Virus record (IMG/VR): IMGVR_UViG_3300036793_000083
Coordinates: 1 to 59,923 of that record
Source of the DNA: a virus
Taxonomy: Duplodnaviria > Caudoviricetes
Direction: 5' to 3' (one strand)
DNA length: 59,923 bases
A program made the translations under genes and the position numbers. This document shows positions 2,885 to 55,145 of the stretch, piece after piece (within the stretch, counting starts at the first letter, position 1; every line of letters begins with the position of its first letter). The notes beneath the pieces were generated by a model that made no database searches, was not told the origin of the DNA, and saw only the letters and a program-made list of their open reading frames with translations.

Positions 2885-3119
2885 CTGAATACGGAGGAGT
2901 CCACGCGCTCAGCGGCAGATCCCCCGCCTTGCGCATCGCCGCCGCCAGGGACCACGCACGTACGGATAGCGTCCAGGGCTCCGAAGTCCAGTCGCTATCC
3001 GAGTGGTGCGCGTCGCCATCGACCTTGCTCGATGCGCGCAGGGTCGCCGTGATCGTGATCAGGTGCCCGTCGTCCGGCCCCTCGATCGCCATGCTCACCA
3101 TCCCTCGGGTATGCGCCAC
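2862..3119 (-). CDS. Hypothetical protein (start uncertain)
   Basis: Fills the gap between RusA and the 2543-2884 ORF. Confidence 0.5.
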   Translation of the reverse strand: MAHTRGMVSMAIEGPDDGHLITITATLRASSKVDGDAHHSDSDWTSEPWTLSVRAWSLAAAMRKAGDLPLSAWTPPYSDDDQDGR

Positions 3120-3598
3120 ACCGTGATGCGCGCACCAGGCCCACAGCCGTGGGCGGCGATGCGCTTCGTGGCGTGCTGGTCGACTATCAGACAGTCATCC
3201 AGCCAGACCACGCCGGTGAGGGCGTCGAAAATGCTTCGTACTAGCTTGTCGTTATCCCCCGTGCGCTTGATCGCGTACGGCTGCGCGGACTTCGGCGTGC
3301 CGACTGGCCGGCGCATGGTGAAGGCGATATGCACGCCCAGTGGGCCATCCAGCAGTGGCCGGCTGCGCCAGTGCAGCGCGGCGGCCTTTGCGACCGTCTC
3401 ACGCCACGGTTTGACTCGCTTGGACGACTCCACCAGCACGGGCGCTGACTTACCCGTCCTGCGGTTTGTCCGGTGCCCCTTGTAGTCCTTACTGCCCTGC
3501 GGTGCAGGCTGGCCCGGCACCCAGATCGACAGCTCGACGCGGACGCCGGACATGGAGGTGGTCAGGCCACCCCCGGCGTGATAGCGCGGATCGGTCAC
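3095..3598 (-). CDS. rusA: RusA-like Holliday junction resolvase
   Basis: VPGQPAPQGSK...VESSKRVKPWR...DNDKLVRSIFDALTGVVWLDD. Confidence 0.85.
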   Translation of the reverse strand: MTDPRYHAGGGLTTSMSGVRVELSIWVPGQPAPQGSKDYKGHRTNRRTGKSAPVLVESSKRVKPWRETVAKAAALHWRSRPLLDGPLGVHIAFTMRRPVGTPKSAQPYAIKRTGDNDKLVRSIFDALTGVVWLDDCLIVDQHATKRIAAHGCGPGARITVWRIPEGW

Positions 3599-3963
3599 GA
3601 CCCGGGCCGCTCAGGGAAGACACCGTGTGCGGCGAAGTGCTCCAGATAGGCGACCGACAGTCCGGTGCAGGCGGGCAGGTTGTCAACCTTCGCCCACACG
3701 CGGACGTACTGGCCATCGATCTCCGCGTCGAACTCCACCGATGACCACTGGTCGTCGCAGGAGCGGACGTCCAGGTAGTCAGCGCCGAACGAGCGCGCCC
3801 ACGCCGCAAGTTCGGCCGCCGCCGTGCCCTCTGTCGACTGACGCGGCATCACTCGCACCTCACGCCACCGAGGCTGCCCGTACAGGTGCACCTCGGACAG
3901 GTCCGGATGCTTGCGCGTGTGCTCCACCATCGCGGCCAGGTAGCCGGCGAAATCCTCGGACAC
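3595..3963 (-). CDS. Hypothetical protein
   Basis: GTG start after GGGAG; stop overlaps the RusA start. Confidence 0.55.
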   Translation of the reverse strand: MSEDFAGYLAAMVEHTRKHPDLSEVHLYGQPRWREVRVMPRQSTEGTAAAELAAWARSFGADYLDVRSCDDQWSSVEFDAEIDGQYVRVWAKVDNLPACTGLSVAYLEHFAAHGVFPERPGS

Positions 3964-4862: not shown

Positions 4863-5239
4863 CAGCTTGCCTTCCTGACTGCCTTGCACAGCCGATCGAT
4901 GCGCCTCGCGTTCGCGGCCACGTTCGTACGGGCCGCCTCGGGTAGCGCCTCGATCATGTCCCGCACGACCGGCCCGGCGACGTCATCCGCCTCGATCTCC
5001 ATGAGGATCCACAGAGCGTCGACAAGGGAGTTCTCATCCGGATCGTCACTGAAGTCGCGCGCCGGGCGTCCCGGGTGAATCAGCGCCGTCTCGGGCGTCG
5101 CGCGGTCGCCTAGCGCCCACCGCAGGGCCACGCGGAAGGCATCACGCAGCGCGCCTTCCTGCGCGTCGTAGTCCACTGAGGTCATGTCCAGCCGGTCCAG
5201 TGTGTCCAGTTCGGCTGCGATCTCCTGCTCGGTGCGCAT
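4862..5239 (-). CDS. Hypothetical protein
   Basis: TAATG and TGATG coupling. Confidence 0.55.
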
Positions 5240-5682
5240 TACGTCGTCACTCCCATCCACGTCACGCCCAATGACTCCAGCCACTTGATCTCGTTCTGCG
5301 TCAGGTCAACCTGCTCGGCACCGAGTGCCACGTGATTGCAGGTCTGCGCCAGGAAGTCGCTCACCATGTCGCCATCGAGCAGGATCCGCGCGTAACCACT
5401 GGGGGAGCACAGATCCATCCAGACGTCCCCGTAGTAGTCCGCTTCGCCGCCTTCATATGGCCGAAGCTGCGCGTCACCTTCGCCCACGGCCATCAGCATC
5501 CCGTCGGCCAGCAGTTCGCGGGCGATCGTCCAGCGCCGGTTGCGACCGAATACCAGCGTCACCGCGATCGGGTCGGCGATGCTCCAGAGCAGGCGCACCC
5601 CGATGGGGCGCCAGCCGTCGTCATCGCCGTCGACCAGCGAACCGGCGCAGATGTGGTCAACGGTCCAGGCGCGCCCCTTCAC
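5239..5682 (-). CDS. SsgA-family sporulation/cell-division protein (SALP)
   Basis: DPIAVTLVF...WTIARELLADGM...VGEGDAQLRP...LCSPSGYARI...VSDFLAQT...VALGAE; GTGA overlap start at 5682. Confidence 0.85.
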   Translation of the reverse strand: MKGRAWTVDHICAGSLVDGDDDGWRPIGVRLLWSIADPIAVTLVFGRNRRWTIARELLADGMLMAVGEGDAQLRPYEGGEADYYGDVWMDLCSPSGYARILLDGDMVSDFLAQTCNHVALGAEQVDLTQNEIKWLESLGVTWMGVTT

Positions 5683-6095
5683 GGTGCGCTGCCGATCCGC
5701 TCGGCCTCGGCGATCAGAGCGGCGTACGCCCGATCGACCCGGAACAGTGCCGATCCGGAGCGCACCGTCAGGCGACGAGTGACGGTGCGGCCATGCTGCT
5801 GGATCGCCTCGGTCAGCGCCTCGCGGGACGCGGCCAGCGCGTCGAGCACCATCTGATACGGCAGATCCTCGGTCGCGGTGGCGACCGCTGCGGCCTCGGC
5901 AAAGTGCCAGGGCTCCTGCGCGATCTTGATATGCCACCACGCCTGAGAGCGCACGTAGTTCGTCGCACCGTGCATCCAGTATCCGCAGGCGCACTCTAAG
6001 GTGCTGATCCCGCTCGGAGTCTGGATCTCGACACCGCAGGCATCCTTGACCAGTTCCTGATCATGCCGAATAACGATCCCGTGCTCGATCATCAC
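5679..6095 (-). CDS. Hypothetical protein (CACG, possible Zn ribbon)
   Basis: Coupled ORF. Confidence 0.5.
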   Translation of the reverse strand: MMIEHGIVIRHDQELVKDACGVEIQTPSGISTLECACGYWMHGATNYVRSQAWWHIKIAQEPWHFAEAAAVATATEDLPYQMVLDALAASREALTEAIQQHGRTVTRRLTVRSGSALFRVDRAYAALIAEAERIGSAP

Positions 6096-6274: not shown

Positions 6275-6630
6275 TACCGGTACACCTCCACATCGACATG
6301 CGCGTCATGTTCGGTCCGTGCCGTGACGACGGGGAAGCTGCACGACGGGCAGAGCCAGTCGCCATCGCGACCGTGGCCCGGCGTGAAGAGGTAGACCGTG
6401 GCCCGGCCGTGATCGCTGTCGTGCGAGCAGACCTCATCGGAGCGTTCATCCATCGCGCCCGGGTCGACCTTGCATCGCGGAATGGACAGGTCGGCCAGTT
6501 GCTTCACCGTCCACAACTGACGGCGGATCTCGGGGAGCACATCGGCCAGCGGGCCGAAGTGAGCGGGCGGGTCGCCCTGCTCGACGTGCTGAATGTGCCG
6601 GGCCTGCTGGTCCACAGTGTCATCTCCCAT
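6274..6630 (-). CDS. Hypothetical protein, first gene after a promoter and leader motif
   Basis: CPSC motif; start at ATG 6630 or GTG 6615. Confidence 0.55.
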   Translation of the reverse strand: MGDDTVDQQARHIQHVEQGDPPAHFGPLADVLPEIRRQLWTVKQLADLSIPRCKVDPGAMDERSDEVCSHDSDHGRATVYLFTPGHGRDGDWLCPSCSFPVVTARTEHDAHVDVEVYR

Positions 6631-6687
6631 GTCGTGCCGACCGTCGCCGACAGTGTTGACACTACAGCATGACGTGCGGCCGGTCAA
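6624..6687 (-). promoter_or_regulatory. Sigma70-type promoter plus GACG-hairpin/GACATGGGAG leader (copy 1)
   Basis: TTGACC-17-TAGTGT; GTCGGC-GACG-GTCGGC-ac-GACATGGGAG. Confidence 0.8.
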
Positions 6688-6693
6688 CGCGAA

Positions 6694-6724
6694 GGCGGGC
6701 CGCCTCACAAGGAAGCGACCCGCC
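6694..6724 (-). terminator. Intrinsic terminator
   Basis: GGCGGGUCGCUUC-loop-GAGGCGGCCCGCC followed by UUCGCGUU, after the stop at 6746. Confidence 0.6.
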
Positions 6725-6745
6725 CGTATGTCCCTGCTGCGAGGA

Positions 6746-7537
6746 CTATCCCGCCTGCGCGGTGGTGGCGGTGAGACGTCGCGACTGGGGTGGCACAAAC
6801 ACCGTGACTTGCGGCTCGGTTTGCTGCCCGGCCGCCGCGTCGAGCAGGCACGGGCCGATGGCGCAGCGATACGACCCGCCGATGGTCGCCACCACGGAGC
6901 GCAGGTGATGGGTGCGGTAGACCGCGACCGGCATCTGCCGGCGACCACCTACCTTGCCGAGCACGCCGAGGTAATCCGCGGTCCAGCCGTGCCCCGTCTC
7001 GGGCAGCACCACGTCCCCGTTGTCATCGGTCACGACCTCGTAGGCCGGACCGTCCAGCGCCTCGATCAGCTTCGCCGGGAACGTCGAGCCGTCGCCGGTC
7101 GTGAAGGCCAGCGCCAGGCCGTTCGGAACCTGCGCCGGATCTTCGCGCACCGTCAGGAGGTCTCCCTGCAGATCCAGTTGGCAGCGGTGCGTGACCTCCT
7201 TGCCGAGGCTGTTTACTAACGGCTTGAACGTGGCAATGACGGCCTTGACGTCCTCCAGCGTGACGAACGCGCTGCGGTGCCACGTGCCGTCAGTCGGGAT
7301 GTGCGCCTGCGCGATGATCGAGGACGTGGTGGACGTGCCCACCAGCAACTCTGTCGGCACCGCCTCGATCAGCGGCACCTCACCGTCATCGCCCGCCACG
7401 TCCATGTCGAACTCGCCGGCTGCGGTGTGCAGGAGCACGCCGTGCGTGCTCGCGAGCTCAGCGGCCGGGCACGCGGTCAGCGCCAGATCCTGCAGCATCC
7501 CGACCAGGTAGCGGGTCGGTGCCGTGACTACAGCCAT
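6746..7537 (-). CDS. Hypothetical protein, possibly a divergent sliding-clamp fold
   Basis: Strong RBS AGGAG; weak resemblance to the beta-clamp pattern. Confidence 0.5.
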   Translation of the reverse strand: MAVVTAPTRYLVGMLQDLALTACPAAELASTHGVLLHTAAGEFDMDVAGDDGEVPLIEAVPTELLVGTSTTSSIIAQAHIPTDGTWHRSAFVTLEDVKAVIATFKPLVNSLGKEVTHRCQLDLQGDLLTVREDPAQVPNGLALAFTTGDGSTFPAKLIEALDGPAYEVVTDDNGDVVLPETGHGWTADYLGVLGKVGGRRQMPVAVYRTHHLRSVVATIGGSYRCAIGPCLLDAAAGQQTEPQVTVFVPPQSRRLTATTAQAG

Positions 7538-7602
7538 GCCGTTCTCCTATTCATCCGGTGGAGGTGGCGCTGCGGTGGCGTCACCCGCTACCATCTCGCG
7601 TT

Positions 7603-7696
7603 AGGGAGTGGTCCGACGGGCAGGTGCAAACCTGGCCCCCGACCCATCCGCCTGTATCTCCATGTCCGGGCGGTTGCGGAGGGGGCGCCACTCCCT
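7603..7696 (+). ncRNA. Putative structured small RNA antisense to the GACAUGGAG leader motif
   Basis: 9-bp closing stem, CAGGU-GCAA-ACCUG GNRA hairpin, long hairpin with loop UAUCUCCAUGUC, short U run after. Possible -10 TACCAT at 7589-7594. Confidence 0.6.
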
Positions 7697-7720
7697 TTAC
7701 TTATGCCCTGCTGTCCTGCC

Positions 7721-8038
7721 TTACGCCGCGCGTCCGACTCCGCAGCCTGCCGATCGTGACGGGTGCGGCGTCGTGACTCGCGTGCCTGCGAACGTCGACA
7801 CCGCCCGCTCCCACTGGCGCGCCGACGGGTCATCGGGCATCGCCCGGCGCACCTCAGCCAGCGCGTGACGCATCACCACTACCTCGATGGGCAGCGCCGA
7901 GCCGTCCACCGGCGTGACGCCCGAGACGAGACGGGCCATCAGGTGACGGTCGCGGGTGGCGTCACGCTCCGACGGGTGGCGCGCCAGGTGCATGTCGAGC
8001 ACGCCGACCAGCACGCCGCGCAGGACGCGGTTGCTCAC
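7721..8038 (-). CDS. Hypothetical protein
   Basis: GTG start; operon packing. Confidence 0.45.
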   Translation of the reverse strand: MSNRVLRGVLVGVLDMHLARHPSERDATRDRHLMARLVSGVTPVDGSALPIEVVVMRHALAEVRRAMPDDPSARQWERAVSTFAGTRVTTPHPSRSAGCGVGRAA

Positions 8039-8156
8039 CTCGCCGGCCACGTCGCACCGTCCTGCGCTGCGCACCAGCCGGTACGCGGATCGTGGTCCAG
8101 CACGCACACCGCACCGTTGGGCCCGGCGGACCCGTGGGCCTCGCGCTCCATATCCA

Positions 8157-8999
8157 TCACCGTCTCCTCATCGGCCAGCCGTCCGCATTGCGCTCGACGT
8201 CATCGGCGCGGGCGGGCAGCGTGCGGATCAACTCATCAGCCTCGGCGCGGGTCGTGACGCCCGCCTCGTGATCGCGCTCGATCTTCTGCTCGGCCCGCGG
8301 GTTGCGGAAGTATTCGGCAAGCTGCAGCGAGTGCGCCCGGTACCACTCGCGCTGAGCGCGGTACAGCCGGCCGAGGTCGCCCGACGCCAGCGTGTTCCAC
8401 GCGTCGATCTGCTCAGGCTTAGGGCCATGCCTGCCGGCTGGCCACGAGGTCGCCGAGCGGCGGGCGAGTATCCAGGCCAGCCGCATCGTCGCCTGCGCAT
8501 CGGCCGCCGCGTCGTGCGCACCGTCCAGGACCACGCCGTAGTGCTTGCAGGTGTCGGCTAGCCGGCGACTGCCCGCCCGGTAGCGGTCGCACATGCGGTC
8601 TATCAGCAGTGTGTCGACCACCGGGGGCAGCGCATCGAGATCCAGCGCGGTGCCGAGGTGGCGGCCCATCTCCCTGTCGATGATCGTCAGGTCGAACGGT
8701 GAGTTACAGGTGATCATCGGGCAATCCTGCGACCACCGGCCGGCGAGTACCTGGCCGATCTCCTCGATCACCTGCGCGACGGGTAGGCCCTCGGCCTGCG
8801 CGCGTTCCGTGGGGTAGCCGTGGATCTTCGCCGCCGCGTCCGGGATCGGGCGGGTCGGCTGCGCCACGAAATCCCATCGCTCGACAAGGCGGCTCGGCAT
8901 GTAATGCATCACCGCGGCAGTGATCAGGTGGGCATCCTCGGGATCCGGACTGTCCGTCTCCAGATCCAGACCGATCAGCGGGCCGTCAATCCAGGCCAT
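8157..8999 (-). CDS. DnaQ-like DEDDh 3'-5' exonuclease
   Basis: DLET, NSPFD and HDAAADA motifs. Confidence 0.9.
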   Translation of the reverse strand: MAWIDGPLIGLDLETDSPDPEDAHLITAAVMHYMPSRLVERWDFVAQPTRPIPDAAAKIHGYPTERAQAEGLPVAQVIEEIGQVLAGRWSQDCPMITCNSPFDLTIIDREMGRHLGTALDLDALPPVVDTLLIDRMCDRYRAGSRRLADTCKHYGVVLDGAHDAAADAQATMRLAWILARRSATSWPAGRHGPKPEQIDAWNTLASGDLGRLYRAQREWYRAHSLQLAEYFRNPRAEQKIERDHEAGVTTRAEADELIRTLPARADDVERNADGWPMRRR

Positions 9000-9796
9000 C
9001 AGGCGCCTGCCTCTTCGGCCGCTGATCGGTCTCGTCCGATGCGGACAACCATCGGGCCGATCTTCTCCTCCTCGCCCGCCTCGTTCACGACCAGCGCGTC
9101 CAAGTGGCGATCGCTCTTCAGCTCGGCGTGTATCTGGAGCAAGCGGCCCTTACTGGTGCGCGGGTCCGTGATCTCGGCGACGTAGGAACTCGGCGCGCGG
9201 GTCGCCTTTTCACCGCGGTCGACGCGGGAGGCGTCCGGGTCCGGGTCGCCCGTGGGGATCAGTCCGCCGCTGAGTAGCAGGACGCGCAGGGCCACGCTCT
9301 GCGCCTTCGCGGTGCCCTTGTCGGCCGAGTCCAGCGCCTCGCCCGAGGACTGCAACTGGATGGTGTCGCCCATCGGGCCGACGATCAGATACGTCACGGT
9401 CACCGTGCACTCGCGCATCTGGCTGCCCTTGCTCGACGTGGTGTCCCGGTGCGCCGCGTCGACATGGATCGGCAGGACCGACACGCCGTGGTTGAGCGTG
9501 ATCGGACCGAACGCGCGCACGACCGTATCCACGCCGCGGAAGTTGTAGCCCGTGTTACCCGCGCTGTACCGCTCTGCCTTCGCGATCGAGCCGATATCGC
9601 GACGCACCCGCAGCCACGCCAGGTGAACCGGGATCTGCTCCGGTTCACCCTCGCCGACGACGTAGGCGGACATGTCGATGCCCGGGGAGACCGGAGCGGG
9701 CGCCTCGGGCGGCAGTGCGGGACCGACGCCACCGGCCAGCGGATTGCGCACGAAGGCTGCCGCTGCCTGCTCGGCGCGCTCGGACAGTGAGGTCAC
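8999..9796 (-). CDS. ERF-family single-strand annealing protein
   Basis: YNFRGVDTVV...GEALDSADKGTAKAQS...IPTGDPDPD. Confidence 0.85.
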   Translation of the reverse strand: MTSLSERAEQAAAAFVRNPLAGGVGPALPPEAPAPVSPGIDMSAYVVGEGEPEQIPVHLAWLRVRRDIGSIAKAERYSAGNTGYNFRGVDTVVRAFGPITLNHGVSVLPIHVDAAHRDTTSSKGSQMRECTVTVTYLIVGPMGDTIQLQSSGEALDSADKGTAKAQSVALRVLLLSGGLIPTGDPDPDASRVDRGEKATRAPSSYVAEITDPRTSKGRLLQIHAELKSDRHLDALVVNEAGEEEKIGPMVVRIGRDRSAAEEAGA

Positions 9797-11842: not shown

Positions 11843-11995
11843 TCATGCGGCATTCAGGATTTCCGCCGCCTGGTCCACCGTCATCAGCACGGGGAAGGGC
11901 TCGGAGTGCACGTCACGCACCCAGGCGCGCAGGATGCGGGCCAGCAGGATGCGGGTGCGGAGGTGGGCCAGAAACCACACGATGATCACTCCCAT
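11843..11995 (-). CDS. Small hypothetical protein after leader motif
   Basis: Hand-translated 45-50 aa ORF ending LMTVDQAAEILNAA. Confidence 0.45.
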   Translation of the reverse strand: MGVIIVWFLAHLRTRILLARILRAWVRDVHSEPFPVLMTVDQAAEILNAA

Positions 11996-12055
11996 GTCGT
12001 CATGTCAGCCCGTCGGCTTGGGGTTGACATTACAGTATCGCGGGAGGTGCGTCTA
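11989..12055 (-). promoter_or_regulatory. Promoter plus leader motif (copy 2)
   Basis: TAGACG-17-TAATGT; AGCC-GACG-GGCT...GACATGGGAG. Confidence 0.75.
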
Positions 12056-14498: not shown

Positions 14499-14620
14499 AG
14501 CAGGTCACCGCCCTCGGATTCCGTCCCCCGGTGAGAGACGATCGAAACATCGCGGGCATGATCGGGTGCCACACTCGCGTCCCGTGCGGGACGGTGCGGG
14601 GTAGACGGATGCACTGGCAT
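14495..14620 (-). CDS. Small hypothetical protein after leader motif
   Basis: 41-aa ORF whose stop overlaps the clamp GTG (GTGA). Confidence 0.35.
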   Translation of the reverse strand: MPVHPSTPHRPARDASVAPDHARDVSIVSHRGTESEGGDLL

Positions 14621-14630
14621 CAGAGCTTGC

Positions 14631-14655
14631 CTCCATGTCTTCAGGCCGTCGCCTG
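14631..14655 (-). promoter_or_regulatory. Leader motif (copy 3)
   Basis: CAGGC-GACG-GCCTG-aa-GACATGGAG; possible -10 TAAGCT upstream. Confidence 0.75.
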
Positions 14656-24812: not shown

Positions 24813-27476
24813 GTGGCCCTGCTGGATCACCTCCTGATCCGCTCCGCGCCGAGCGCCGCACGCGAACAGCCTGACCTCTCCCCGTTCTGGCGTGCGCAGC
24901 GTGGTACCCGCGTGCTTCGCGCCGATGGCCAGCGGTGGGACCTGACGAAGAGAGACGCCGGTAACCGGATCGCGGTGCTGCGCCAGCAGTGGCAGGCCGA
25001 CGCGTGGGACTACCGCGACATGATCGGGGAGCTTCGTTACGCGCAACGCCTGCTGGCCCGCAGCGTGACCCGCGTGCGCTTTTTTGCGGCCGAGTTGCGC
25101 GACTACCCCGAAGGCCCGGCCGAACTGTCCGGCACCGATCACGACCTGGACACGCAGCTAGCCGCCGACGCGGTGGCGAACCTGTCACGCCTGCCGATGG
25201 ACGACGGCCCGGACGGGTTTATCGCCGCGCTCACGGAGAACATCGAGACGGCCGGCGAGTGCTGGGTTCACGGGGAGCCGCAGGGTCGCAGCGACGAACT
25301 GTGGACGGTGCGCAGTATCAGCGAGATCACCTCCGCAGGCGATCAGGTGATGCTCTCGGAGCTGCCGAACAACGCCCTGTCCGGCCAGCGGATGATCGGC
25401 CAGGATGAAGAGCTGTTGCGGTGCTGGGTGCGTCACCCGCGATGGGGGCAGTTGGCCGACGGGCCGCTGCGCGCCATGCTCGACGTGCTGGAGGAGATCG
25501 TCCTCACCGGCCGGGAGATGCGCGCTGCCAGCCGCTCACGCATCGCGGCGAACGGCGTGCTGTTGATCCCCGACGAGTTGTCCCTGTTGCGCCCGCGCGG
25601 TGACGAAGAGGCAGAGGCCACCTTCGCGGCGTTGGATGACGACTTTTTGAACGACTTCACCCAGGACATGATCGCGCCGATCCGCAACGAGGGCGACGCG
25701 GGCGCGGTGGTTCCCCTGATCCTGCGCGGCCCGGCCGAGCACCTGAAAGAAGTGCGCCAGGTCGTGCTGCAGCGTGACGACGCCTCCAAGCTGGAGGCGC
25801 GATTGTCCGGTGCGGTGCTGCGGATGCTGAAGGGCCTGGATATCCAGCCTGAGCAGGTGCAGGGCATGGGCGCGTCCAATCACTGGACCGCCTGGCTTAT
25901 CGAGGCGAAAGATGTTCGCCAGCAGGTAGAGCCGACCTCGGCCATTGTCGCGTCCTGCCTGACGAAGGCCTTCCTTCGCCCCGCGCTGCTCGCTCTCGGC
26001 CACGATCCGGAGCAGGTCCGTCGGGTGATCGTCGCGAACGACGTCTCCGATCTGGTGGAGAATCCGGACCGCAGCGCCGACGCTAAGGACGCATGGGACC
26101 GCGACGCGATCACCGACGAAGCCCTGCGCGAGGCGCTGGGTTTCGACGCCGACGACGCCCCCGACGGCCATCAGCACCTTGCCCGCCTGCTGGCGAAGGG
26201 ACGCCTCACGCCCGAGGCGGTGCCGTTGATTGCCGCGCTGGAAGGCATGGACATGACCGACGCGGTGCTGCAGCAGGCGCTGAGGATCAGTATCGGCATG
26301 GCCGCGAAGCCTAACCCCGGCCAGCTCGGCGTCGGCGGGCAGAACACACCGCCGTCCGGCAATGCAAACCCTGCCGCGCCCGGCCAGCGCGTGCCGGATC
26401 AGCCGATACCCGCGACGCAGGCCGCGCAGGTGGTGGCGTCGGGCCCGCCGGATCCGCTGGAGGGCTGGACGGTCGACGTCGACACCGCCCGCGAACTGGC
26501 AGCCATCGACGCCGCGCTGGTGGAACGCATCGTCACCGCGGCGGATGCGGCGATCGCGCGGGTGATCGAGCGCGCGGGCGGACGGGCGCGCAACGCGGTG
26601 CGCAAGGACAAGACGCTGGCGGCGAAGGTCGCCGAGGTGGACACGGTGCGCGTCGCCGCTGCCCTCGGCGCTGAGACCCTACTGGCCTACGCGTCGCTGC
26701 CGGATCTGCTCGCGGAGACCTATGACCGGCTGAAATCGCAGGTGAGTCGCTGGCTGGCCGACGCCGCCGAGCAGGCCGCGCGGGTGACGCTGCGTCTGCT
26801 GAAACTGGACCGGCGCAGCCCCCGTGGGCGTGAGGTGTTCGAGCAGGTGACGACGCTCCTGGAGCCTCACCGTGACGCCGCGGTGTCCGCGCTAGTGGAG
26901 TCGATGACCAGCGCCGCCGAGCGCGCGCTGTTCCGTGCCGACCCGCTGGCGCCGCTGCCGGATCAGCGCGGTGAGCAGTTCGACACCCTGGTCAGTCCGT
27001 CCGAGGTGATGGCCGCGGTGCGCATGGCAGGCGGTGGTCAGCCCGGCGATCAGGGCGGACTCGGCACCGGTCCGGTGATCACGGACGCGCTGGAGAGCCA
27101 GGGCGCGCTCCTGCTGGGCCACGAGTGGCAGTACCACCCGGAGCGGTCGCGTAACACGTTTCCTCCGCATCTCGCGCTGGACCAGGCGCGGTTCACGACG
27201 TTCACTGACCCGAAGCTCCGCCCGGACCTCCGGGCGGCGTGGGTCGGTCCATTCCTGCATCCCGGTGACCATCTGGGGTGCAGGTGCAGCACCTCACCCA
27301 TCGTCGCGGTGCCCGAGGCGGGCGCGGATCTGTCACGGCTGCGCGAGCCGACGGATCCGCTGCAGCGGGCACTAGCGGAGTCGGATACTGCGGCGGGCCG
27401 ACAGGGCACCTCGGCGCAGCGTCAGGTGGAGGTGCGGGACCGGCTCACTCGCGCCGTGATCGAGAGGGCGGCGTAA
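24813..27476 (+). CDS. Portal protein fused to a MuF-like minor head domain
   Basis: WQADAWDYRDMIGELRY, SNHWTAW portal motifs; C-terminal HPGDHLGCRC. Confidence 0.8.
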   Translation: MALLDHLLIRSAPSAAREQPDLSPFWRAQRGTRVLRADGQRWDLTKRDAGNRIAVLRQQWQADAWDYRDMIGELRYAQRLLARSVTRVRFFAAELRDYPEGPAELSGTDHDLDTQLAADAVANLSRLPMDDGPDGFIAALTENIETAGECWVHGEPQGRSDELWTVRSISEITSAGDQVMLSELPNNALSGQRMIGQDEELLRCWVRHPRWGQLADGPLRAMLDVLEEIVLTGREMRAASRSRIAANGVLLIPDELSLLRPRGDEEAEATFAALDDDFLNDFTQDMIAPIRNEGDAGAVVPLILRGPAEHLKEVRQVVLQRDDASKLEARLSGAVLRMLKGLDIQPEQVQGMGASNHWTAWLIEAKDVRQQVEPTSAIVASCLTKAFLRPALLALGHDPEQVRRVIVANDVSDLVENPDRSADAKDAWDRDAITDEALREALGFDADDAPDGHQHLARLLAKGRLTPEAVPLIAALEGMDMTDAVLQQALRISIGMAAKPNPGQLGVGGQNTPPSGNANPAAPGQRVPDQPIPATQAAQVVASGPPDPLEGWTVDVDTARELAAIDAALVERIVTAADAAIARVIERAGGRARNAVRKDKTLAAKVAEVDTVRVAAALGAETLLAYASLPDLLAETYDRLKSQVSRWLADAAEQAARVTLRLLKLDRRSPRGREVFEQVTTLLEPHRDAAVSALVESMTSAAERALFRADPLAPLPDQRGEQFDTLVSPSEVMAAVRMAGGGQPGDQGGLGTGPVITDALESQGALLLGHEWQYHPERSRNTFPPHLALDQARFTTFTDPKLRPDLRAAWVGPFLHPGDHLGCRCSTSPIVAVPEAGADLSRLREPTDPLQRALAESDTAAGRQGTSAQRQVEVRDRLTRAVIERAA

Positions 27477-29260
27477 TGGCCGATCAGCAGAACACGGGCG
27501 GGATGGTCGCACTCGTCCCCTCCGATGACCACGCGCAGCAGATGGCGGTCGATGGCGGACTCGATCCCGGTGACCTGCATCTGACGCTGGTCTACCTCGG
27601 CGACGACGTGACCGATTGGGACGACGACCAGCAACAGCAGGTGGTCGACTCCGCGCAGCAGATGGCCAGCGCCATGTCGCCGGTGCAGGGCCGTGCGTTC
27701 GCTCACGCCGGTTTCAACCCGGACGGCTACCAGGACCGGCCACCGTGCGCGGTGTACTTGATCGGCGATGCACCCGGCCTCTCGGATGCACGCGACGCGC
27801 TGGCACCGCTGGCCTCGGCCGATCAGCATGAGCCGTTCGTGCCGCACGTGACGGCAGGCGAGGGCATCGATCCGTCGGGCCTGAGCTTCACGGGTCCGGT
27901 GACGTTCGACAAGATGCGCGTAGCGATGGGTGATCAGGTGACCGACATGCCACTGACCGGCGAGGCAGACCAGGGCGACGGCGCGGACAACCTCGCCGCC
28001 GCGGTGTCCGCGAAGCAACGCAGCAACGCGCAGGACGCTGGCGACACCTACCCGGGAACCGACAAGTTCCCCGTGAAGACGCGCGACCAGTTCAGTAAGG
28101 CGTGTGGCCTCGCGGGGAACAGCGACCTGCCCGGCGACAAGGTGCGCAAGTGGCTGATGAGTGTGGCCAAGCGCAAGGGCTGGACTGATCTCATCCCGGA
28201 CACGTGGAACCCTGACGGGTCGCTGACCGCTGCCGCCACCGCTCCCGAGGCGGTCCCCATCGAGTGGTTCCGCGATCCAGGGCTGGACGGACCGACGCCG
28301 CTGACCGTGGCCGACGATGGGCGGGTGTACGGCCATCTCGCGACCTGGCAGAGCGATCACATCGGATTCCCGGGCAAGCGGATCAAGCCGCCGCGCTCGG
28401 CTGCCGACTACGCCTACTTCCACACGGGCTCCCGGCTCACGGCGGATGGCGAGGAACAGCGCCCGATCGCCACGGGCCACATCACGCTCGACACCGGCCA
28501 CGCCGAGATGACCGCCGACGCCCGCGCGGCCTCGGCCCACTATGACAACACCGGGTCGTTGGCGGCCGACGTGTGCGCGGGCGAGGACGCGCACGGCATA
28601 TGGGTGGCGGGTGCGACGGTGCCGGGCCTGGATGAATTGCGGCTGCACAAACTGCGCGCGTGCGGACTCTCCGGTGACTGGCGGCGCATCGGCGCAGGCT
28701 TGGAACTGGTCGCAGCGCTGTCCGTGCCGACGCCCGGGTTCCCGATCCCCCGCAGCCGTGTCGCCTCGGCCGGCGAGCCGGTGGCGCTGGTCGCCGCGGG
28801 CGCGATGGCACCGGCCCCGGTGTTGGACCAGGACTCGATCGCCGAGGCGGTGGTGGCCCGCCTGGACCGGCGCGACGCCGACCGTGCCGAGCGCGAGGCA
28901 CTGACCGCGGCACTGCTGGAGGACGACACCGCCGAGCGGCTGGAGCTGATGGCCGATCTCGTCGCCGACGATCTGGAGGGCCTGACCGCATCCGCCGATG
29001 TGCTGACCGCGGCGCAGAATTGGGTACAGCAGACCGGTGGCCTTCCGCAGTACATCAAGCGGATCTCTGACCACCTGCGCGCGAAGGGCATGGACCAGTC
29101 GCGGTCGATCGCAGTCGCGGTCAACGCCGCCAAGCGAATGTGTGCCACCGGTGACCTGAATTTCCCGGGCCTGCAGCAGGTGAACGCCGGGTCTAAGGCC
29201 GAGGCGTGCGCAGCGGTGGCCGACTGGGAGCGCAAGAAAGCCCAGTCCCACGCGACGTGA
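27476..29260 (+). CDS. Capsid maturation protease with N-terminal 2H phosphoesterase domain
   Basis: HLTL and HVTA (2H motifs); GRVYGHLATW...SGDWR protease-type domain; lies between portal and capsid. Confidence 0.72.
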   Translation: MADQQNTGGMVALVPSDDHAQQMAVDGGLDPGDLHLTLVYLGDDVTDWDDDQQQQVVDSAQQMASAMSPVQGRAFAHAGFNPDGYQDRPPCAVYLIGDAPGLSDARDALAPLASADQHEPFVPHVTAGEGIDPSGLSFTGPVTFDKMRVAMGDQVTDMPLTGEADQGDGADNLAAAVSAKQRSNAQDAGDTYPGTDKFPVKTRDQFSKACGLAGNSDLPGDKVRKWLMSVAKRKGWTDLIPDTWNPDGSLTAAATAPEAVPIEWFRDPGLDGPTPLTVADDGRVYGHLATWQSDHIGFPGKRIKPPRSAADYAYFHTGSRLTADGEEQRPIATGHITLDTGHAEMTADARAASAHYDNTGSLAADVCAGEDAHGIWVAGATVPGLDELRLHKLRACGLSGDWRRIGAGLELVAALSVPTPGFPIPRSRVASAGEPVALVAAGAMAPAPVLDQDSIAEAVVARLDRRDADRAEREALTAALLEDDTAERLELMADLVADDLEGLTASADVLTAAQNWVQQTGGLPQYIKRISDHLRAKGMDQSRSIAVAVNAAKRMCATGDLNFPGLQQVNAGSKAEACAAVADWERKKAQSHAT

Positions 29261-29422
29261 CACGCGTGTGCGCATTGCGCGGATTGCGCGGCGCCTACCG
29301 TTCGGCGCAATGAAGGGGTATCGCGCCCGCACGACGACGCGCATAGCGCACCGGCCAGGCGGTCAGCGGTAACGGCGTAGCCGGCGGCCCCGGTGTCGAT
29401 CCTGCCTGACCGAGAGGCCGCC

Positions 29423-31492
29423 ATGTCTATCGAGCAGATCCGCGAACTTCTGTCCCGCCTGCGCGGCGACGGTGCCGACCCGACGTCGGTGACCGACGCG
29501 CAGCTGGCCGAGGCACGCGCGGCCATCACCGAGCAGGCCCGTGGCGACACCTCCGCGATGGCGCTCGATGACCTGCGCACCCTGCGCGACGCCCGCGCCG
29601 CCGTGGTGGAGCTGCAGACCAGCCGGGCCGCCGAGGCGACCGAACGCGAGGGCCTGCTGTCCGAGCTCACCGAGCCGACACCGGAGCCTTCCGAGGGTGA
29701 GATCACCGAGACTGAGGACCCGGCCGAGCCGGGCACGCGCACCCCGGGCGAGGCGCCGTCACCGGACGCACCGGCGCCCACGCCCGGGGTGCCTGACCCC
29801 GGGTCGACAGCACCGGCCGCGCAGCCTGCAGCCGTAGCCGCCTCGGGCCGCCGTGCGCCGAGTGGATCGATCGGGCGGGCCGCTCCCGCGCCCGATCCCG
29901 CGCTGGCGATCGTGGCCAGCACCACCGCGGCAGGCGGTACCGCGAGCTTCGCTGCGGGCGACGCCATCCCCGACCTCGGCGGACTGGCCCGCGCGATGGC
30001 CGAGCGCATCTCCACCTTGACGAAGAGTCGCGCCGCCGACGGTGAGCGCATCCACGTCGCCCGGGTGACGCGTCAGTATCCCGAGGCGCACCGGCTGAGC
30101 AATGACGCCAGTTTCGATGCGAACCACCGGAAGATCGAGGCGGTGACCAGCGCCGAGGCACTGGTGGCCGCCGGTGGACTCTGCGCCCCGCCGCAGACCC
30201 TCTACGACATTGAGGTGATCGGGTCATCGTCCCGCCCGATCCGTGCGGCCCTCACCCCGTTCATGGTGGAGCGCGGTGCGATCCAGTACCGCCCGAATAC
30301 CTCGGCTGCCGCAGCGGTGAACGGGGTGGGCGTGTGGACGCTGACCGACGACGCAGAGGCGGGTATCGGCGTCACCGATCCGAGCAAGGCGTGTTTCGAG
30401 GTGCCCTGCCCCGGACTGCAGACCGCGCAGATCCAGGCCATTTACCAGTGCCTGGAGTTCTCCAACATCACCGCGCGCTACGACCCGGAATCAACGGCGG
30501 CGAACGTGCGTTCCGGCGTGATCGCCCATACCCGTCTCGCCGAGAATCAACTACTCGCGGCGATCTATGCGACCAGCAAGATTGTCACGGTGGGCGCGCA
30601 GCAGGTCGGCGCGGTGCGTCACGTGCTGGTCGGCCTCGACAAGATCCTGGCCTACTACCGCAACCGGCACCGCATCGATGAGTCGGTCTCGCTGACCTGG
30701 ATCGTCCCGGCATGGGTCCGCAACATGTTCCGCGCCGACCTCGCCTACCAGATGGCGGCGGCGGACTGGCAGAGCGCACTGGCGGTGTCCGAGCAGATGA
30801 TCGACACGTGGCTGAGCGCCCGCGGCGTGACGCCCGCATGGCACCTGGATGGCGGGATCGGCGGCACAAACGAGATCCAGACGATCGCCATCACCGGCAC
30901 GCCGACGGGCGGCACGTTCACGCTGACCTACAGCGGCCAGACCACCGCTGCGATCCCGTACAACGCCACCGCAGCGCAGGTCAGTGCGGCATTGCAGGCG
31001 CTGAGCAACCTCACGGTGGACAACATCACCGCTGCGGGCGGACCGCTACCGGGCACCAGCGTCACGGTGCAGTTCAGCATCGGCTTCGGTGTCGACGCGG
31101 CGCTGATGACCGCGGCGGGGAGCTTCACCGGTGGATCCTCGCCCGCGGTGGCGGTGACGACGACCACGGCGCCGTCCACGACGGCCACGGTCAACAGCAT
31201 CAGCATCCCGGAGCAGGTCTACGACAATGTGAGCGCGGGCGCCACGGTTCCGCAGTTCCCGACCAGCGTCGACACGGCGCTGTTCGTCACCGGGACAAAG
31301 CTCTTCCTGGACGGCGGCACGTTGGATCTCGGCGTGGTGCGTGACTCGCAGCTCAACGCCCGCAACCGGTATCGCCAGTTCTTCGAGACGTTCGAGGGCG
31401 TGGCCGATCGCGGTATCGAGTCCCTGCGCGTCGTGATACCGGCCGGGCCGAGCGGCATGAGCGCGGGCACCGTCAGTGTGACCAGCGGCTGA
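29423..31492 (+). CDS. Major capsid protein with N-terminal scaffold region and inserted accessory domain
   Basis: AAGGLCAP..TLYD, GTLDLGVVRDSQLN..N.Y..F.ETFEG. Confidence 0.85.
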   Translation: MSIEQIRELLSRLRGDGADPTSVTDAQLAEARAAITEQARGDTSAMALDDLRTLRDARAAVVELQTSRAAEATEREGLLSELTEPTPEPSEGEITETEDPAEPGTRTPGEAPSPDAPAPTPGVPDPGSTAPAAQPAAVAASGRRAPSGSIGRAAPAPDPALAIVASTTAAGGTASFAAGDAIPDLGGLARAMAERISTLTKSRAADGERIHVARVTRQYPEAHRLSNDASFDANHRKIEAVTSAEALVAAGGLCAPPQTLYDIEVIGSSSRPIRAALTPFMVERGAIQYRPNTSAAAAVNGVGVWTLTDDAEAGIGVTDPSKACFEVPCPGLQTAQIQAIYQCLEFSNITARYDPESTAANVRSGVIAHTRLAENQLLAAIYATSKIVTVGAQQVGAVRHVLVGLDKILAYYRNRHRIDESVSLTWIVPAWVRNMFRADLAYQMAAADWQSALAVSEQMIDTWLSARGVTPAWHLDGGIGGTNEIQTIAITGTPTGGTFTLTYSGQTTAAIPYNATAAQVSAALQALSNLTVDNITAAGGPLPGTSVTVQFSIGFGVDAALMTAAGSFTGGSSPAVAVTTTTAPSTTATVNSISIPEQVYDNVSAGATVPQFPTSVDTALFVTGTKLFLDGGTLDLGVVRDSQLNARNRYRQFFETFEGVADRGIESLRVVIPAGPSGMSAGTVSVTSG

Positions 31493-31493
31493 C

Positions 31494-32330
31494 ATGTTCT
31501 CCACGGTTCCCGGTGTCCTCGCGGCGCCTCCAGCCCTCGGGCTGGTGGCGTCCGCGGTGCGCCCGCAGGATCCGGACACGCGCTGGACGGCGGGCATGGC
31601 GTGGATACCGGAGCGCTGCGGGATCACCTACCAGTTGATTCCGTACTGCTCGGACGCCGACCCGGACACCCACGACGCGGACACCACGGGCGCTGTCTAC
31701 TACCGCCCGCCTGCGGTCCGCTTCGCAGTCGCGTGCACCACGATGGGCGGCGGCGTGGACTCCGAGCGGATGCTGCGCGTGGTCGACGCGGCCACTCCGT
31801 ACGTGATCGCACGCGAACTGTGGAGCGGAACCGCGGCGCAGGCCGAGGCGAACTACGCGACTCCCTTCGGCGGCACGGGCACTAACCCGTATCTCGCCTC
31901 GGGCGCCGCCTCGGTGGTCGGGTCGGGCGGTACCTCGCCGGCGGTGGCCCTCGGCCTGCTGGAGCAGGCCGCACTGGACGCCGGAATGGGCCAGCGGGTG
32001 ATGCTGCACATCCCTCCGGACGTCCTGCCGTTGTTCGGACTCGGGCAGATCAGGATGATCGGTAACGACCTGCTGACCATGAACGGCTCCTACGTCATCG
32101 CCGACGCGGGATATCCGGGCAGCGGGCCCGCCGGGCAGGACCCGGGCGCGACGGTATGGGCCTACGCGACGTCACTCGTGTCGGTCCGGATGACCGGCAT
32201 AGAGATCGAGGACGTGCCGGTCCAGACAGTGGACCGCGCGACGAACACGATGACCGTGTGGGCAAACCGGGTGATCGCGGCGACGTTCGACCCGTGCGTG
32301 CACTTCGCCACCGAGATCACGAGGGAGTGA
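31494..32330 (+). CDS. Minor capsid / head-associated structural protein
   Basis: Position after the capsid gene; IADAGYPG, DRATNT. Confidence 0.6.
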   Translation: MFSTVPGVLAAPPALGLVASAVRPQDPDTRWTAGMAWIPERCGITYQLIPYCSDADPDTHDADTTGAVYYRPPAVRFAVACTTMGGGVDSERMLRVVDAATPYVIARELWSGTAAQAEANYATPFGGTGTNPYLASGAASVVGSGGTSPAVALGLLEQAALDAGMGQRVMLHIPPDVLPLFGLGQIRMIGNDLLTMNGSYVIADAGYPGSGPAGQDPGATVWAYATSLVSVRMTGIEIEDVPVQTVDRATNTMTVWANRVIAATFDPCVHFATEITRE

Positions 32331-32333
32331 GCG

Positions 32334-33320: not shown

Positions 33321-33330
33321 GATCACCGCT

Positions 33331-34262: not shown

Positions 34263-34263
34263 C

Positions 34264-35488: not shown

Positions 35489-35513
35489 GGGCAAGGAAGC
35501 GCAGCGCGGTGCC

Positions 35514-35924
35514 TTAGAGGGTGCTCAGCTCGGCACGTGCACCGGCGATCTCGGCGCACCGTGCGTAGATATCGGACGTCCGGCCGCTGGTCCGGTCGGC
35601 GCACATCCGCCAGTAGCCCGGCTTCGTATTCGGGTCGCAGGCGTTGATCATGGCGTCGGCGGCGCTGTCAATATCGCGCTGCCGTAGCTCAGACTCGGTG
35701 AGTGCGGGCGTGTGCGAGGCGATTGGCCACACGCACTCGGCGGTGAACACGAAGCCCTCGGGCCGGTCCGGGCGGCAGTCCAGCGCGACGGTTGACACCG
35801 CCTCCCCGCAGTCCCAGGTCAGCGCCCGGGTGACGACTCCGCGACGGGCGGGGAACTCGGGGGTGTCCACGATGACGGGGCACCCGGGAACGAGTGCCGC
35901 GAAGTATGCCGGTTGACCGGACAT
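35514..35924 (-). CDS. Moron-like hypothetical gene antisense within the tail module
   Basis: Has its own promoter and leader motif. Confidence 0.65.
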   Translation of the reverse strand: MSGQPAYFAALVPGCPVIVDTPEFPARRGVVTRALTWDCGEAVSTVALDCRPDRPEGFVFTAECVWPIASHTPALTESELRQRDIDSAADAMINACDPNTKPGYWRMCADRTSGRTSDIYARCAEIAGARAELSTL

Positions 35925-35930
35925 TGATCT

Positions 35931-36030
35931 CTCCATGTCGTCTGCGCCCCGTCGGGCGGGAATTCTGCGGTGACACTGGCTTATCGGTCCCGCCACTGTT
36001 GACGTTACAGCGGCCATATCGGCGAGTCAA
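35931..36030 (-). promoter_or_regulatory. Promoter plus leader motif (copy 4)
   Basis: TTGACT-17-TAACGT; CGCCC-GACG-GGGCG-cagac-GACATGGAG. Confidence 0.8.
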
Positions 36031-36098
36031 TGCCGTCACACGACTCGCGTACTCACGTGGCGTCGCGGTCACGCGCCTGCGCTGACCAGCATGGACGC

Positions 36099-51129: not shown

Positions 51130-51338
51130 GACACCTTCGCCGCTCTCATGCACTCGGCGTGAGCGGTGGACTGTGCCCATACCAGCTGGGCAGTCGCGTC
51201 CACAAGGTGCTGATGTGTGACGCGCGAGCGGGTGCCGTGACCGGCTACGACCCGGCGTCGGATCAGTGCCGTGCTCTGCTCGATCAGGGCGGCGATCTCG
51301 GCACAGTCGCCGAGGTGGCCCGTCTGCGTTTCGTGCAT
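51126..51338 (-). CDS. Hypothetical protein after leader motif
   Basis: ATG 6 nt after GACATGGAG. Confidence 0.55.
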   Translation of the reverse strand: MHETQTGHLGDCAEIAALIEQSTALIRRRVVAGHGTRSRVTHQHLVDATAQLVWAQSTAHAECMRAAKVS

Positions 51339-51344
51339 GTCCGT

Positions 51345-51368
51345 CTCCATGTCTCTGCCCCGTCGGGC
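51345..51368 (-). promoter_or_regulatory. Leader motif (copy 5), intra-operonic
   Basis: GCCC-GACG-GGGC-aga-GACATGGAG directly after a stop codon, with no promoter. Confidence 0.75.
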
Positions 51369-53864: not shown

Positions 53865-54098
53865 TCAGCCCTCGCAGTACTGGCAGCCGTTACCGTCGCA
53901 CCACACGCACGGGTCTGGGAATACCGCCGTGAACGTGCCGCTCAGGTGGTCGCGGATGACAGTCGTGGCGTTCGGAGTCAGGGCATCGTTCACGTAGACA
54001 TTCTCGTGACCGTCCAGGGCAATGAGCTGATCCACTAGGGCCAGCACTGCAGCCTTATCCACGCCGAACTCACGTGCGATTGTTTCGATCTCGTCCAT
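53865..54098 (-). CDS. Early hypothetical protein, C-terminal CxxC...CxxC
   Basis: First gene after the promoter and leader motif. Confidence 0.65.
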   Translation of the reverse strand: MDEIETIAREFGVDKAAVLALVDQLIALDGHENVYVNDALTPNATTVIRDHLSGTFTAVFPDPCVWCDGNGCQYCEG

Positions 54099-54103
54099 TG
54101 GCC

Positions 54104-54165
54104 CTCCATGTCTCGGCCCGTCGGCCTGTAGTGACGACAGTACCGACGCGGCGCGGATGTGTCAA
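54104..54165 (-). promoter_or_regulatory. Promoter plus leader motif (copy 6)
   Basis: TTGACA-17-TACTGT; GGCC-GACG-GGCC-ga-GACATGGAG. Confidence 0.8.
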
Positions 54166-55013: not shown

Positions 55014-55031
55014 CCCCTACCCTCGGTGACC

Positions 55032-55139: not shown

Positions 55140-55145
55140 CCTCAC

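Follow-up and report, generated by a model that had tools for sequence, protein, structure and literature searches.

Start-associated sequences (SAS), together with their extended form (ESAS), have been known in the Cluster K mycobacteriophages since 2011 (PMC3203893), and in the passages devoted to them their role was still called unknown in 2024 (PMC11373665) and in 2025. Those passages leave the reader of SAS open as 'either RNA or protein' (PMC3203893, PMC11373665), and they judge the ESAS repeats not to support RNA pairing, with DNA-binding proteins favoured (PMC3203893). An unrelated box that follows the same logic occurs in the stretch of DNA analysed here, referred to as the window, which is the whole of the linear IMG/VR virus record IMGVR_UViG_3300036793_000083 (59923 nt, about 80% complete, 64-73% G+C) and reads as the genome of an uncultured tailed actinophage from soil. 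The window also contains, at positions 7603-7696, a conserved structured element, a 94-base folded stretch between two early genes, with the complement of the box on the strand that bears its own promoter-like signal. This module is real, conserved, discrete and structured, and it is tied to the start-associated box; it is predicted to be, and probably is, a new variant of phage antisense RNA.

The SAS/ESAS system is the closest described counterpart of the box-bearing leaders in the window, by analogy of function and not by membership. As far as the published account of those sites extends, both systems share a short asymmetric box with a Shine-Dalgarno (SD) core that reaches past the limits of 16S rRNA pairing and lies a few nucleotides before the starts of many non-structural genes, nearly always in one orientation; in both, a subset of boxes is preceded by a promoter and an inverted repeat, and one odd copy lies off the gene starts. 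All six leaders of the window carry the box with its SD core on the minus strand, 5-10 nt before an ATG or GTG. The boxes themselves differ, being GACATGG(G)AG in the window and the 13-bp GGGATAGGAGCCC in Cluster K, and the latter consensus has no match in the window at up to two mismatches, against 1.63 expected. The leader hairpins of the window, with their GACG loop and covarying stem, fit RNA pairing, whereas the ESAS repeats were judged otherwise in the part of the account that discusses them. The odd copies differ as well: the one in the window has the orientation of the leaders, so that an RNA carrying the complement (the anti-box) needs transcription of the opposite strand, whereas the one in the Cluster K phage Anaya is reversed and places the anti-box on the gene strand.

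The box GACATGGAG is present in six copies in the window, against 0.76 expected on both strands, a count reached by none of 100 shuffles, and its variant GACATGGGAG is present in two copies, against 0.17 expected, a count reached by three of 100. Six of these eight copies lie in minus-strand leaders, four of GACATGGAG and two of GACATGGGAG, a division among leaders that the first-pass annotation of this DNA had reported; the seventh lies in the element, likewise on the minus strand, and the eighth, at 3549 on the + strand, falls within a minus-strand coding frame. Each leader consists of a hairpin of 3-7 bp, 1-8 nt, the box, a further 5-10 nt and the start codon, and the stems of the hairpins vary in sequence from copy to copy beneath a constant C-GACG-G top. 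The six leaders, with the open reading frames (ORFs) that follow them, are:

54096..54126, minus strand: leader 1, GGCC-GACG-GGCC, GACATGGAG, 5 nt, ATG (77-aa ORF), with TTGACA-17 nt-TACTGT upstream.
51336..51368, minus strand: leader 2, GCCC-GACG-GGGC, GACATGGAG, 6 nt, ATG (70-aa ORF).
35922..35958, minus strand: leader 3, 5-bp hairpin with GACG loop, GACATGGAG, 6 nt, ATG (136-aa ORF).
14618..14655, minus strand: leader 4, 5-bp hairpin with GACG loop, GACATGGAG, 10 nt, ATG (41-aa ORF).
11978..12018, minus strand: leader 5, AGCC-GACG-GGCT, GACATGGGAG, 8 nt, GTG (45-aa ORF), with the -10-like TAATGT upstream.
6613..6652, minus strand: leader 6, 7-bp hairpin with GACG loop, GACATGGGAG, 8 nt, GTG (113-aa ORF), with TTGACC-17 nt-TAGTGT upstream.

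Upstream of three of the six lies a -35-like hexamer (TTGACA or TTGACC, or GTAGAC, which is weaker), followed after 17-18 nt by TA(C/G/A)TGT, an arrangement that would place the hairpin at the extreme 5' end of the mRNA. Leader 2 sits directly after a stop codon and has no promoter-like site. The proteins encoded behind the leaders, 41-136 aa long, have no Pfam or PHROG match. In a 92% identical relative (G001/L122), the hairpin and box of leader 3 are unchanged and the upstream spacer differs. Screening of IMG/VR with the leader pattern returned at least 117 stretches with one match each; among the matches listed, only one stretch (L032) is a relative by blastn, covering window positions 26168-37468 and not the element. 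A literature search for the box sequence yielded unrelated papers only.

Several other systems invite comparison. The OOP RNA of phage lambda is a short RNA with its own promoter and terminator, located in an early operon, transcribed against it and complementary to the mRNA that reads through between two early genes; it is known as a cis-antisense RNA only, without dispersed trans targets. The RNA predicted here resembles it in being a small opposite-strand RNA within an early operon, with no relation in sequence or structure. C4 of P1/P7, CI of P4 and CA of N15 are small structured RNAs whose loops pair with ribosome-binding regions; they arise by processing from immunity operons, in temperate elements, and their one or two sites of action lie within one target operon. 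In the window, by contrast, there are six dispersed supposed leader targets, and no lysogeny genes were found in the roughly 80% complete record. The C-rich-loop small RNAs of Gram-positive bacteria and actinobacteria (6C/B11, RsaE, RNAIII) pair with SD sequences, and the element shares with them a GC-rich hairpin with CUCC in its loop; unlike theirs, its complementarity runs 5 nt past the SD core into the phage-specific box. In phage T4, the translational repressor RegA and the endoribonuclease RegB shut off many early mRNAs through a signal overlapping GGAG. These factors are proteins, whereas the candidate factor in the window is an RNA, and no such protein was identified there.

The likeness to the immunity RNAs C4, CI and CA, on which the first-pass annotation had drawn, gained no support from Rfam: cmscan of the whole window at gathering scores returned no match, including to the C4 family. 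Its remark that no cI or integrase is visible agrees with the domain searches, in which Phage_integrase, Resolvase and HTH_3 had no match, the record being about 80% complete, so that absence is not proven. When 7450-7800 was scanned at E values up to 10, the only match was ftsZ-DE (RF02985), on the + strand at 7618-7675, with two hairpins aligned and CUCC in the second loop; its score of 18.9 bits (E 0.24) lies far below the gathering score of 72.2, and membership of the element in that family was rejected. A literature search for ftsZ-DE yielded unrelated papers only.

The element occupies a 183-nt gap separating two minus-strand genes with clear coding signatures. Its parts are as follows:

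7589..7594, + strand: -10-like hexamer TACCAT (TANNNT), 8 nt before the closing helix.
7603..7611, + strand: 5' strand of the 9-bp closing helix, AGGGAGUGG (DNA AGGGAGTGG; 9-10 bp in the ViennaRNA fold).
7613..7620, + strand: junction mini-hairpin CC-GACG-GG, CCGACGGG, its C(GACG)G identical to the leader hairpin loops.
7621..7634, + strand: 5-bp hairpin CAGGT-GCAA-ACCTG with the GNRA tetraloop GCAA; the loop of the other strand is UUGC.
7635..7686, + strand: long imperfect arm with the anti-box in its apical loop and two of the fold's three G.U pairs.
7658..7671, + strand: anti-box 14-mer CTCCATGTCCGGGC (RNA CUCCAUGUCCGGGC), its first 9 nt the reverse complement of the leader box GACATGGAG.
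7658-7666, + strand: loop 9-mer CTCCATGTC (RNA CUCCAUGUC) in the apical loop of the arm.
7688..7696, + strand: 3' strand of the closing helix, CCACUCCCU (DNA CCACTCCCT).
7696..7704, + strand: U-rich run UUUACUUAU after the helix, with TTTACTTAT from 7696.

All the parts that had been recognised from the letters alone in the first-pass annotation, namely the helix, junction, GNRA hairpin, loop, TACCAT and U run, were found where it had placed them, and the CGACGG core that it ascribed to both the element and the leaders corresponds to the C(GACG)G of the mini-hairpin. Its fold, drawn by eye, was recovered by ViennaRNA as the same multi-branched + strand structure. No further copies of the element were found elsewhere in the window. 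ARAGORN detected no tRNA or tmRNA genes in the window, and the element is no recognised cloverleaf.

The + strand of the element folds at -56.6 kcal/mol (z -3.81), with none of 200 shuffles as stable, compared with -48.1 kcal/mol (z -1.90) and 9 of 200 shuffles for the minus strand. Among 14958 windows of 94 nt taken from both strands and regressed on composition, the + strand of the element ranks 20th (residual z -4.37) and the minus strand 211th. About eight other loci in the window are as structured or more so, several of them symmetrically on both strands; stability alone therefore does not single the element out here. In the + RNA the loop 9-mer is predicted to be unpaired, with a mean probability of 0.82, and the GNRA loop GCAA exists on the + strand only. 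The difference between the strands, 8.5 kcal/mol, is matched by 5% of 600 windows from the minus-gene region.

Close relatives of the element were seen only as soil-metagenome contigs, chiefly in two relatives about 90% identical, X3 and X4. The comparison of these metagenome contigs with the window covers the differences listed, which are 40 of 187 substitutions and 12 of 30 indels, and all statements on X3 and X4 below apply within that set. In X4, five substitutions and two indels fall within 7578-7602, the 25 nt before the element, and 7603-7634 is without change; its contigs match the window through 7696 and then diverge, the U-rich run being replaced by G+C-rich sequence. Because the flanks of X4 diverge outside 7603-7696, conservation stops where the helix ends on either side, and this supports the element as a discrete conserved unit at the sequence level. 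In TACCAT, X4 differs only at the fourth base (C>G at 7592), keeping the T, A and T of TANNNT. X3, for which few substitutions are listed, has none at the five positions of 7578-7596 where X4 differs, and it has lost 2 nt from the U-rich run 7696-7704. The indels of both relatives cluster at 7654-7660 in the apical loop, where insertions (TT after 7654, CGG after 7656, CA or TCCA after 7660) split the 9-mer and part CTCCA from CATGTC. X3 further lacks 7646, the second base of the sole start codon available to the element's box; by our own reading, its insertions introduce a stop four codons after the ATG within the box, and those of X4 lengthen the spacing between GGAG and ATG. Since neither small minus-strand frame survives in X3, the element's box copy is not a working ribosome-binding site. 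A separate observation concerns the flank: in a 5091-nt contig of X3 (about 91% identical), 12 nt within 7519-7532, near the start of the FtsK-like gene, are replaced by 148 other letters.

Searches for further relatives returned little. Blastn of 7400-7900 against phage records gave no match, single-protein locus searches of IMG/VR and metagenomes gave no relative, and an exact 22-mer of the element was not found in IMG/VR; an alignment-based search gave no relative in IMG/VR or genome contigs and one, the locus L119, in metagenomes. The protein encoded by the neighbouring FtsK-like gene has relatives (P0002-P0005) at 89-46% identity. Several matches to the element pattern were discarded as due to chance. 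Two in IMG/VR (L120, L121) lie in coding regions; two in genome contigs (L125, L127) lie in a conserved protein-coding gene, which we take by eye to be a sulfatase; another (L124) reads as coding sequence; and two more (L123, L126) form a hairpin downstream of a frame without protein similarity to the window, presumably the C-terminus of a glutamine synthetase.

L119 is a distant metagenome locus whose flanking FtsK-like protein is 48% identical to that of the window. It carries a module collinear with the element on the same gene-antisense strand, in the order TANNNT, 7-8 nt, 9-bp helix, 2 nt, CGACGG, arms, the 14-mer CTCCATGTCCGGGC, the 3' strand of the helix and TTTAC. In L119 a different gene lies before the module, which makes the upstream junction mosaic. 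On the equivalent strand, the hexamer is TAGGAT, 7 nt before the helix, compared with TACCAT and 8 nt in the window. The closing helix (GTCGAGCGG/CCGCTCGAC in L119) retains five identical pairs and has four changed on both sides, with none broken, and all the compensatory changes are Watson-Crick; an AGTGG...CCACT closing helix considered for L119 was dropped in favour of this longer one. CGACGG lies 2 nt past the 5' strand of the closing helix in both phages, and TTTAC lies within 0-8 nt of its 3' strand in both. The arms differ in number and length, and the GNRA hairpin is replaced in L119 by a 7-bp hairpin with the loop UAUU and one U.G pair. Most else in the module has diverged, while the 14-mer is identical at all 14 positions (L119 3855-3842) and is its best-conserved part.

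The strand preference recurs in L119. The strand equivalent to + forms a branched structure of -74.8 kcal/mol at 3813-3946, and within 3815-3944 (130 nt) the antisense strand has z -3.07 with one of 200 shuffles as stable, compared with z -0.38 and 65 of 200 for the sense strand; in L119, then, folding better than shuffles is confined to the antisense strand, and the minus strand of the window shows it weakly (z -1.90). The asymmetry of 17.8 kcal/mol is reached by 0.7% of 433 windows of the locus, the top ones overlapping the module site. In the minimum free energy folds, G.U pairs number 3 of 36 (window) and 8 of 51 (L119) on the antisense strands and are absent from the 32 and 42 pairs of the sense strands. 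The + polarity advanced in the first-pass annotation on account of the GNRA hairpin is thus retained in part: the + strand is supported by the modelled folds and the G.U pairs as the better candidate for the active strand, and it remains a predicted one. Half of the L119 module overlaps the last codons of the upstream gene, where three codons in a row end in A or T (GTA AAT AGT) and spell the complement of TTTAC; the G+C fraction of this gene at third codon positions (GC3) is 0.80, and the codon choice suggests selection at the nucleotide level.

Other features of L119 touch the box. The locus carries two leaders of the same kind (4862 on the + strand and 7672 on the minus strand), one of them at the matching place after the FtsK-like gene. 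The box carries an ATG of its own (GAC ATG GAG), which shares its reading frame with the downstream start in four of the six leaders in the window and in both in L119; six of eight, against one third by chance, corresponds to about 0.02 by hand arithmetic, and for some genes the true start codon might lie in the box. An 8-9-nt word occurs three times in L119 (3815-3823, 3869-3876 and 3936-3944), once as GTCGAGCGG and twice as its complement, permitting either a short or a long helix around the box but not both, which could constitute an RNA switch. In the window, the + strand box copy at 3546-3557 places the segment CUCCAUGUCCGG in the minus-strand mRNA, inside the gene at 3095-3598, as a 12-nt match to the + strand of the element; it has no counterpart in L119 and, not being conserved there, is probably due to chance.

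These data can be assembled into a mechanism in which a + strand gene of about 100 nt, with 7603-7696 as its body, would encode a small RNA. Transcription would run counter to the leftward early genes, with TACCAT at 7589-7594 as a -10-type promoter, starting at about 7601-7603 and ending in or near the U-rich run at 7696-7704, and the RNA would fold as a three-arm junction closed by the 9-bp helix. Its 14-nt block CUCCAUGUCCGGGC would pair with GACAUGG(G)AG, including the Shine-Dalgarno GGAG, and hinder ribosome binding. In cis, the RNA would be complementary along its full length to the early read-through mRNA immediately ahead of the FtsK-like gene; in trans, the six dispersed leaders would offer it 9-11 nt of complementarity. 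Pairing in cis with that read-through mRNA is unavoidable if both strands are transcribed, and action in trans on the six leaders is the bolder and less secure part. We infer the + strand transcription, the ends of the RNA, the pairing and its effect; any direction or timing assigned to the regulation, such as shut-off of early genes during a lytic cycle, is a guess. Collinearity, compensatory changes and strand asymmetry make a discrete + RNA the best single reading, independently of the argument in the first-pass annotation. On this footing we lean slightly towards the existence of a + strand RNA; that an antisense RNA of about 100 nt works through the anti-box, in cis or in trans, is put forward tentatively as the likeliest of the explanations, with somewhat less confidence; and a full multi-operon silencer appears unlikely.

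Several results weigh against an antisense RNA. The element's box copy is oriented as in the leaders, so complementarity on the + strand is automatic, and given that orientation a sense-strand role is simpler a priori. No promoter was found in a sigma-70 consensus scan of 6400-8400, and TACCAT has no -35 match. A scan of the same interval for intrinsic terminators (a simple G+C-rich hairpin followed by at least 5 T in 8) found no site on either strand, the branched + structure followed by TTTACTTAT being of a form outside its acceptance criteria, and the U-rich run is replaced in X4. In L119 the anti-box is predicted to pair for the most part with an internal CAUCGAG (the 9-mer there has a mean unpaired probability of 0.34), and a local 74-nt fold around the L119 14-mer is not significant, with wobble pairs favouring the sense strand. 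Duplex energies between the arm and the six leaders range from -20.3 to -33.9 kcal/mol and do not surpass a genome background of -26.4 +/- 3.9; such energies are uninformative in a genome this rich in G+C. The splitting of the 9-mer in X3 and X4 counts against the reading as well. It bears on the refuting case named in the first-pass annotation, that of relatives keeping the leader motif without the complementary loop: leader 6 is free of listed indels in an X4 contig, both of whose listed gaps lie elsewhere, and leader 3 is exact in G001, observations that are not shown to come from the same genomes. Of the trans-acting RNA originally proposed, support extends to the discrete unit, the + strand as the better candidate, the conserved 14-mer and TANNNT; the duplex energies at background, the paired anti-box of L119 and the split 9-mer speak against it.

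The main rival, which we regard as rather unlikely, places the function on the sense strand, as a cis element in the leftward early mRNA between the 128-aa and FtsK-like genes. An orphan seventh box at a hairpin tip would be bound by the same reader as the leaders, whether that is the 30S subunit, by way of GGAG, or a protein of phage or host, and would serve the downstream gene as a standby site, a decoy, or a signal for processing or stability. The orientation of the box copy, shared with 6/6 leaders and the local genes, fits this directly, and a sense RNA is necessary if the FtsK-like gene lacks its own promoter, none having appeared in the 6400-8400 scan. The L119 copy is also in sense orientation, at 145 nt from the FtsK-like ATG compared with 121 nt in the window, and lies partly in the 3' end of a certainly transcribed gene. 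The box is predicted to be unpaired on the minus strand too (0.91), and since the spacing of GACATG and GAG varies among the leaders (0 or 1 nt), a 2-nt insertion as in X3 and X4 could be tolerated by two-part recognition. Yet the sense fold is no better than shuffles in L119 and only weakly better in the window, every G.U pair is on the opposite strand, the box copy lacks the C(GACG)G hairpin found in all six leaders, and TANNNT and TTTAC, at the helix ends on the opposite strand in both phages, are left unexplained. Even if it acts on the sense strand, the module is a new cis element linked to that box. An ordinary leader of a very small ORF, with 19 codons from ATG 7647 or 20 from the box ATG, is in turn close to refuted. 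GGAG, 10 nt and ATG 7647 do fit the 5-10 nt range of the leaders, whose genes are also small (41-136 aa), but that very ATG is disrupted in X3, the frame from the box ATG is cut short there, the GGAG-ATG spacing is stretched in X4, and a GC3 of 0.65 gives no coding signature; the 65-aa frame after the box in L119 was likewise set aside, as it resembles nothing in the window (best E 0.18) and has a weak codon signature.

Two further explanations were weighed. A generic structure, such as a processing or stabilising hairpin, an insulator or a terminator, in which the box would be the vestige of a lost leader or a recombination scar, is improbable. Many strong hairpins and palindromes occur in this genome, with at least eight loci as stable or more so, the apical loop bearing the box is the most indel-prone part in the ~90% relatives, as expected for a loop of unimportant sequence, and the module adjoins a mosaic junction. 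An exact 9-mer, however, is expected only about 0.001 times in a given 94-nt stretch (hand arithmetic from 0.76 per window), the 14-mer was kept in L119 amid near-total divergence of the module, and the terminator scan was empty on both strands. A site acting as DNA, either an inverted-repeat protein target or a cruciform (operator, origin-associated or recombination site), seems very improbable. The closing and GCCCCC/GGGGGC helices are perfect inverted repeats, the all-Watson-Crick compensatory changes preserve a DNA palindrome equally well, the neighbouring genes encode DnaQ-like, Erf, RecE/YqaJ, DnaB and FtsK-like proteins, and DNA-binding proteins are favoured for the ESAS inverted repeats in the pertinent passages of PMC3203893. 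Against such a site, the one-strand G.U pairs (3 in the window, 8 in L119) would be mismatches in a cruciform, the arms are imperfect and branched, their number and length differ between the phages, and no repeats of the element occur elsewhere in the window.

Should the predicted antisense RNA prove real, one short RNA could control a dispersed early regulon at the level of translation, which is undescribed for actinophages in the literature searched, where nothing relevant on actinophage small RNAs was found. An RNA answer would also be suggested for SAS. Each Cluster K1 genome carries one reversed SAS off the gene starts, according to the section on these sites in Pope et al. (PMC3203893). 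In Anaya (JF704106), the reversed SAS, with one mismatch, lies at 59870-59882 in a 385-nt gene-free gap between gp96 and gp97, a region conserved in 142 phage records, and on the gene strand its complement CCUCCUAUCC forms the apical loop of a hairpin (59849-59900 of the record). When 11 Cluster K phages, picked from a spread listing and not at random, were aligned, 37 pairs were predicted; 8 show a compensatory change, and G.U pairs recur on the gene strand. Six of the 11 (Anaya, Adephagia, Validus, Bella96, Peanam and Amelie) keep the anti-SAS loop exactly; in the other five (Ekdilam, Amgine, TClif, Yuna and Keshu) the loop is changed or deleted; the SAS consensus is unchanged in all four that were checked of the latter five, with 17-18 forward copies each. 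The precedent cuts both ways, with a box-mirroring hairpin in an unrelated box system that is nevertheless not required wherever the box is kept. That a small hairpin RNA mirroring the box, and not a protein, is the missing factor that switches a dispersed early set off or on, with the window as the first case and the Cluster K1 CCUCCUAUCC hairpin as a second and independent one, is a doubtful generalisation at present; if true, it would expose the SAS question, open since 2011, to a direct test in Mycolicibacterium smegmatis.

The setting of the element within the genome is given by the following genes:

20-39 kb, + strand: terminase, portal, protease, major head and tape-measure genes.
1-18 kb, minus strand: leftward replication and recombination block, with SsgA-like, FtsK-like, DnaQ-like exonuclease, Erf, RecE/YqaJ, DnaB and O-like initiator genes.
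6746..7537, minus strand: gene for the 263-aa FtsK-like protein (phrog_6152; GC3 0.87), the downstream neighbour, its ATG 66 nt from the element.
7721..8107, minus strand: gene for a 128-aa protein (GC3 0.83), the upstream neighbour, its stop 24 nt from the element.

The FtsK-like protein has tblastn matches at 27-29% identity to genes annotated as FtsK-like DNA translocase. The 128-aa protein has no Pfam or PHROG match, and its family is unassigned. In the same leftward block, an SsgA-domain protein, of a Streptomyces sporulation and cell division family, is encoded at 5239-5994 on the minus strand (Pfam E 3.7e-18), which points to a sporulating actinomycete as host.

Additionally, other structured loci were noted in the window. 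The most structured, at 55025-55145, is a near-perfect long palindrome with (CAAA)n/(TTTG)n repeats and about -75 kcal/mol on each strand, which could be an origin, a terminator or a protein-binding site. A long hairpin at 54205-54325, with -86 kcal/mol on both strands and direct and inverted CGGGGTA-type repeats, lies upstream of the promoter-like site of leader 1 and looks like an operator or iteron array. At 2450-2590, a region of apparent change in strand usage, a perfect G+C-rich hairpin of 16 bp and of equal stability on both strands may be a bidirectional terminator. Finally, a 13-bp inverted repeat (GACCGATCAGCGG...) at 8940-9065 spans the junction of the DnaQ-like and Erf genes within coding sequence.

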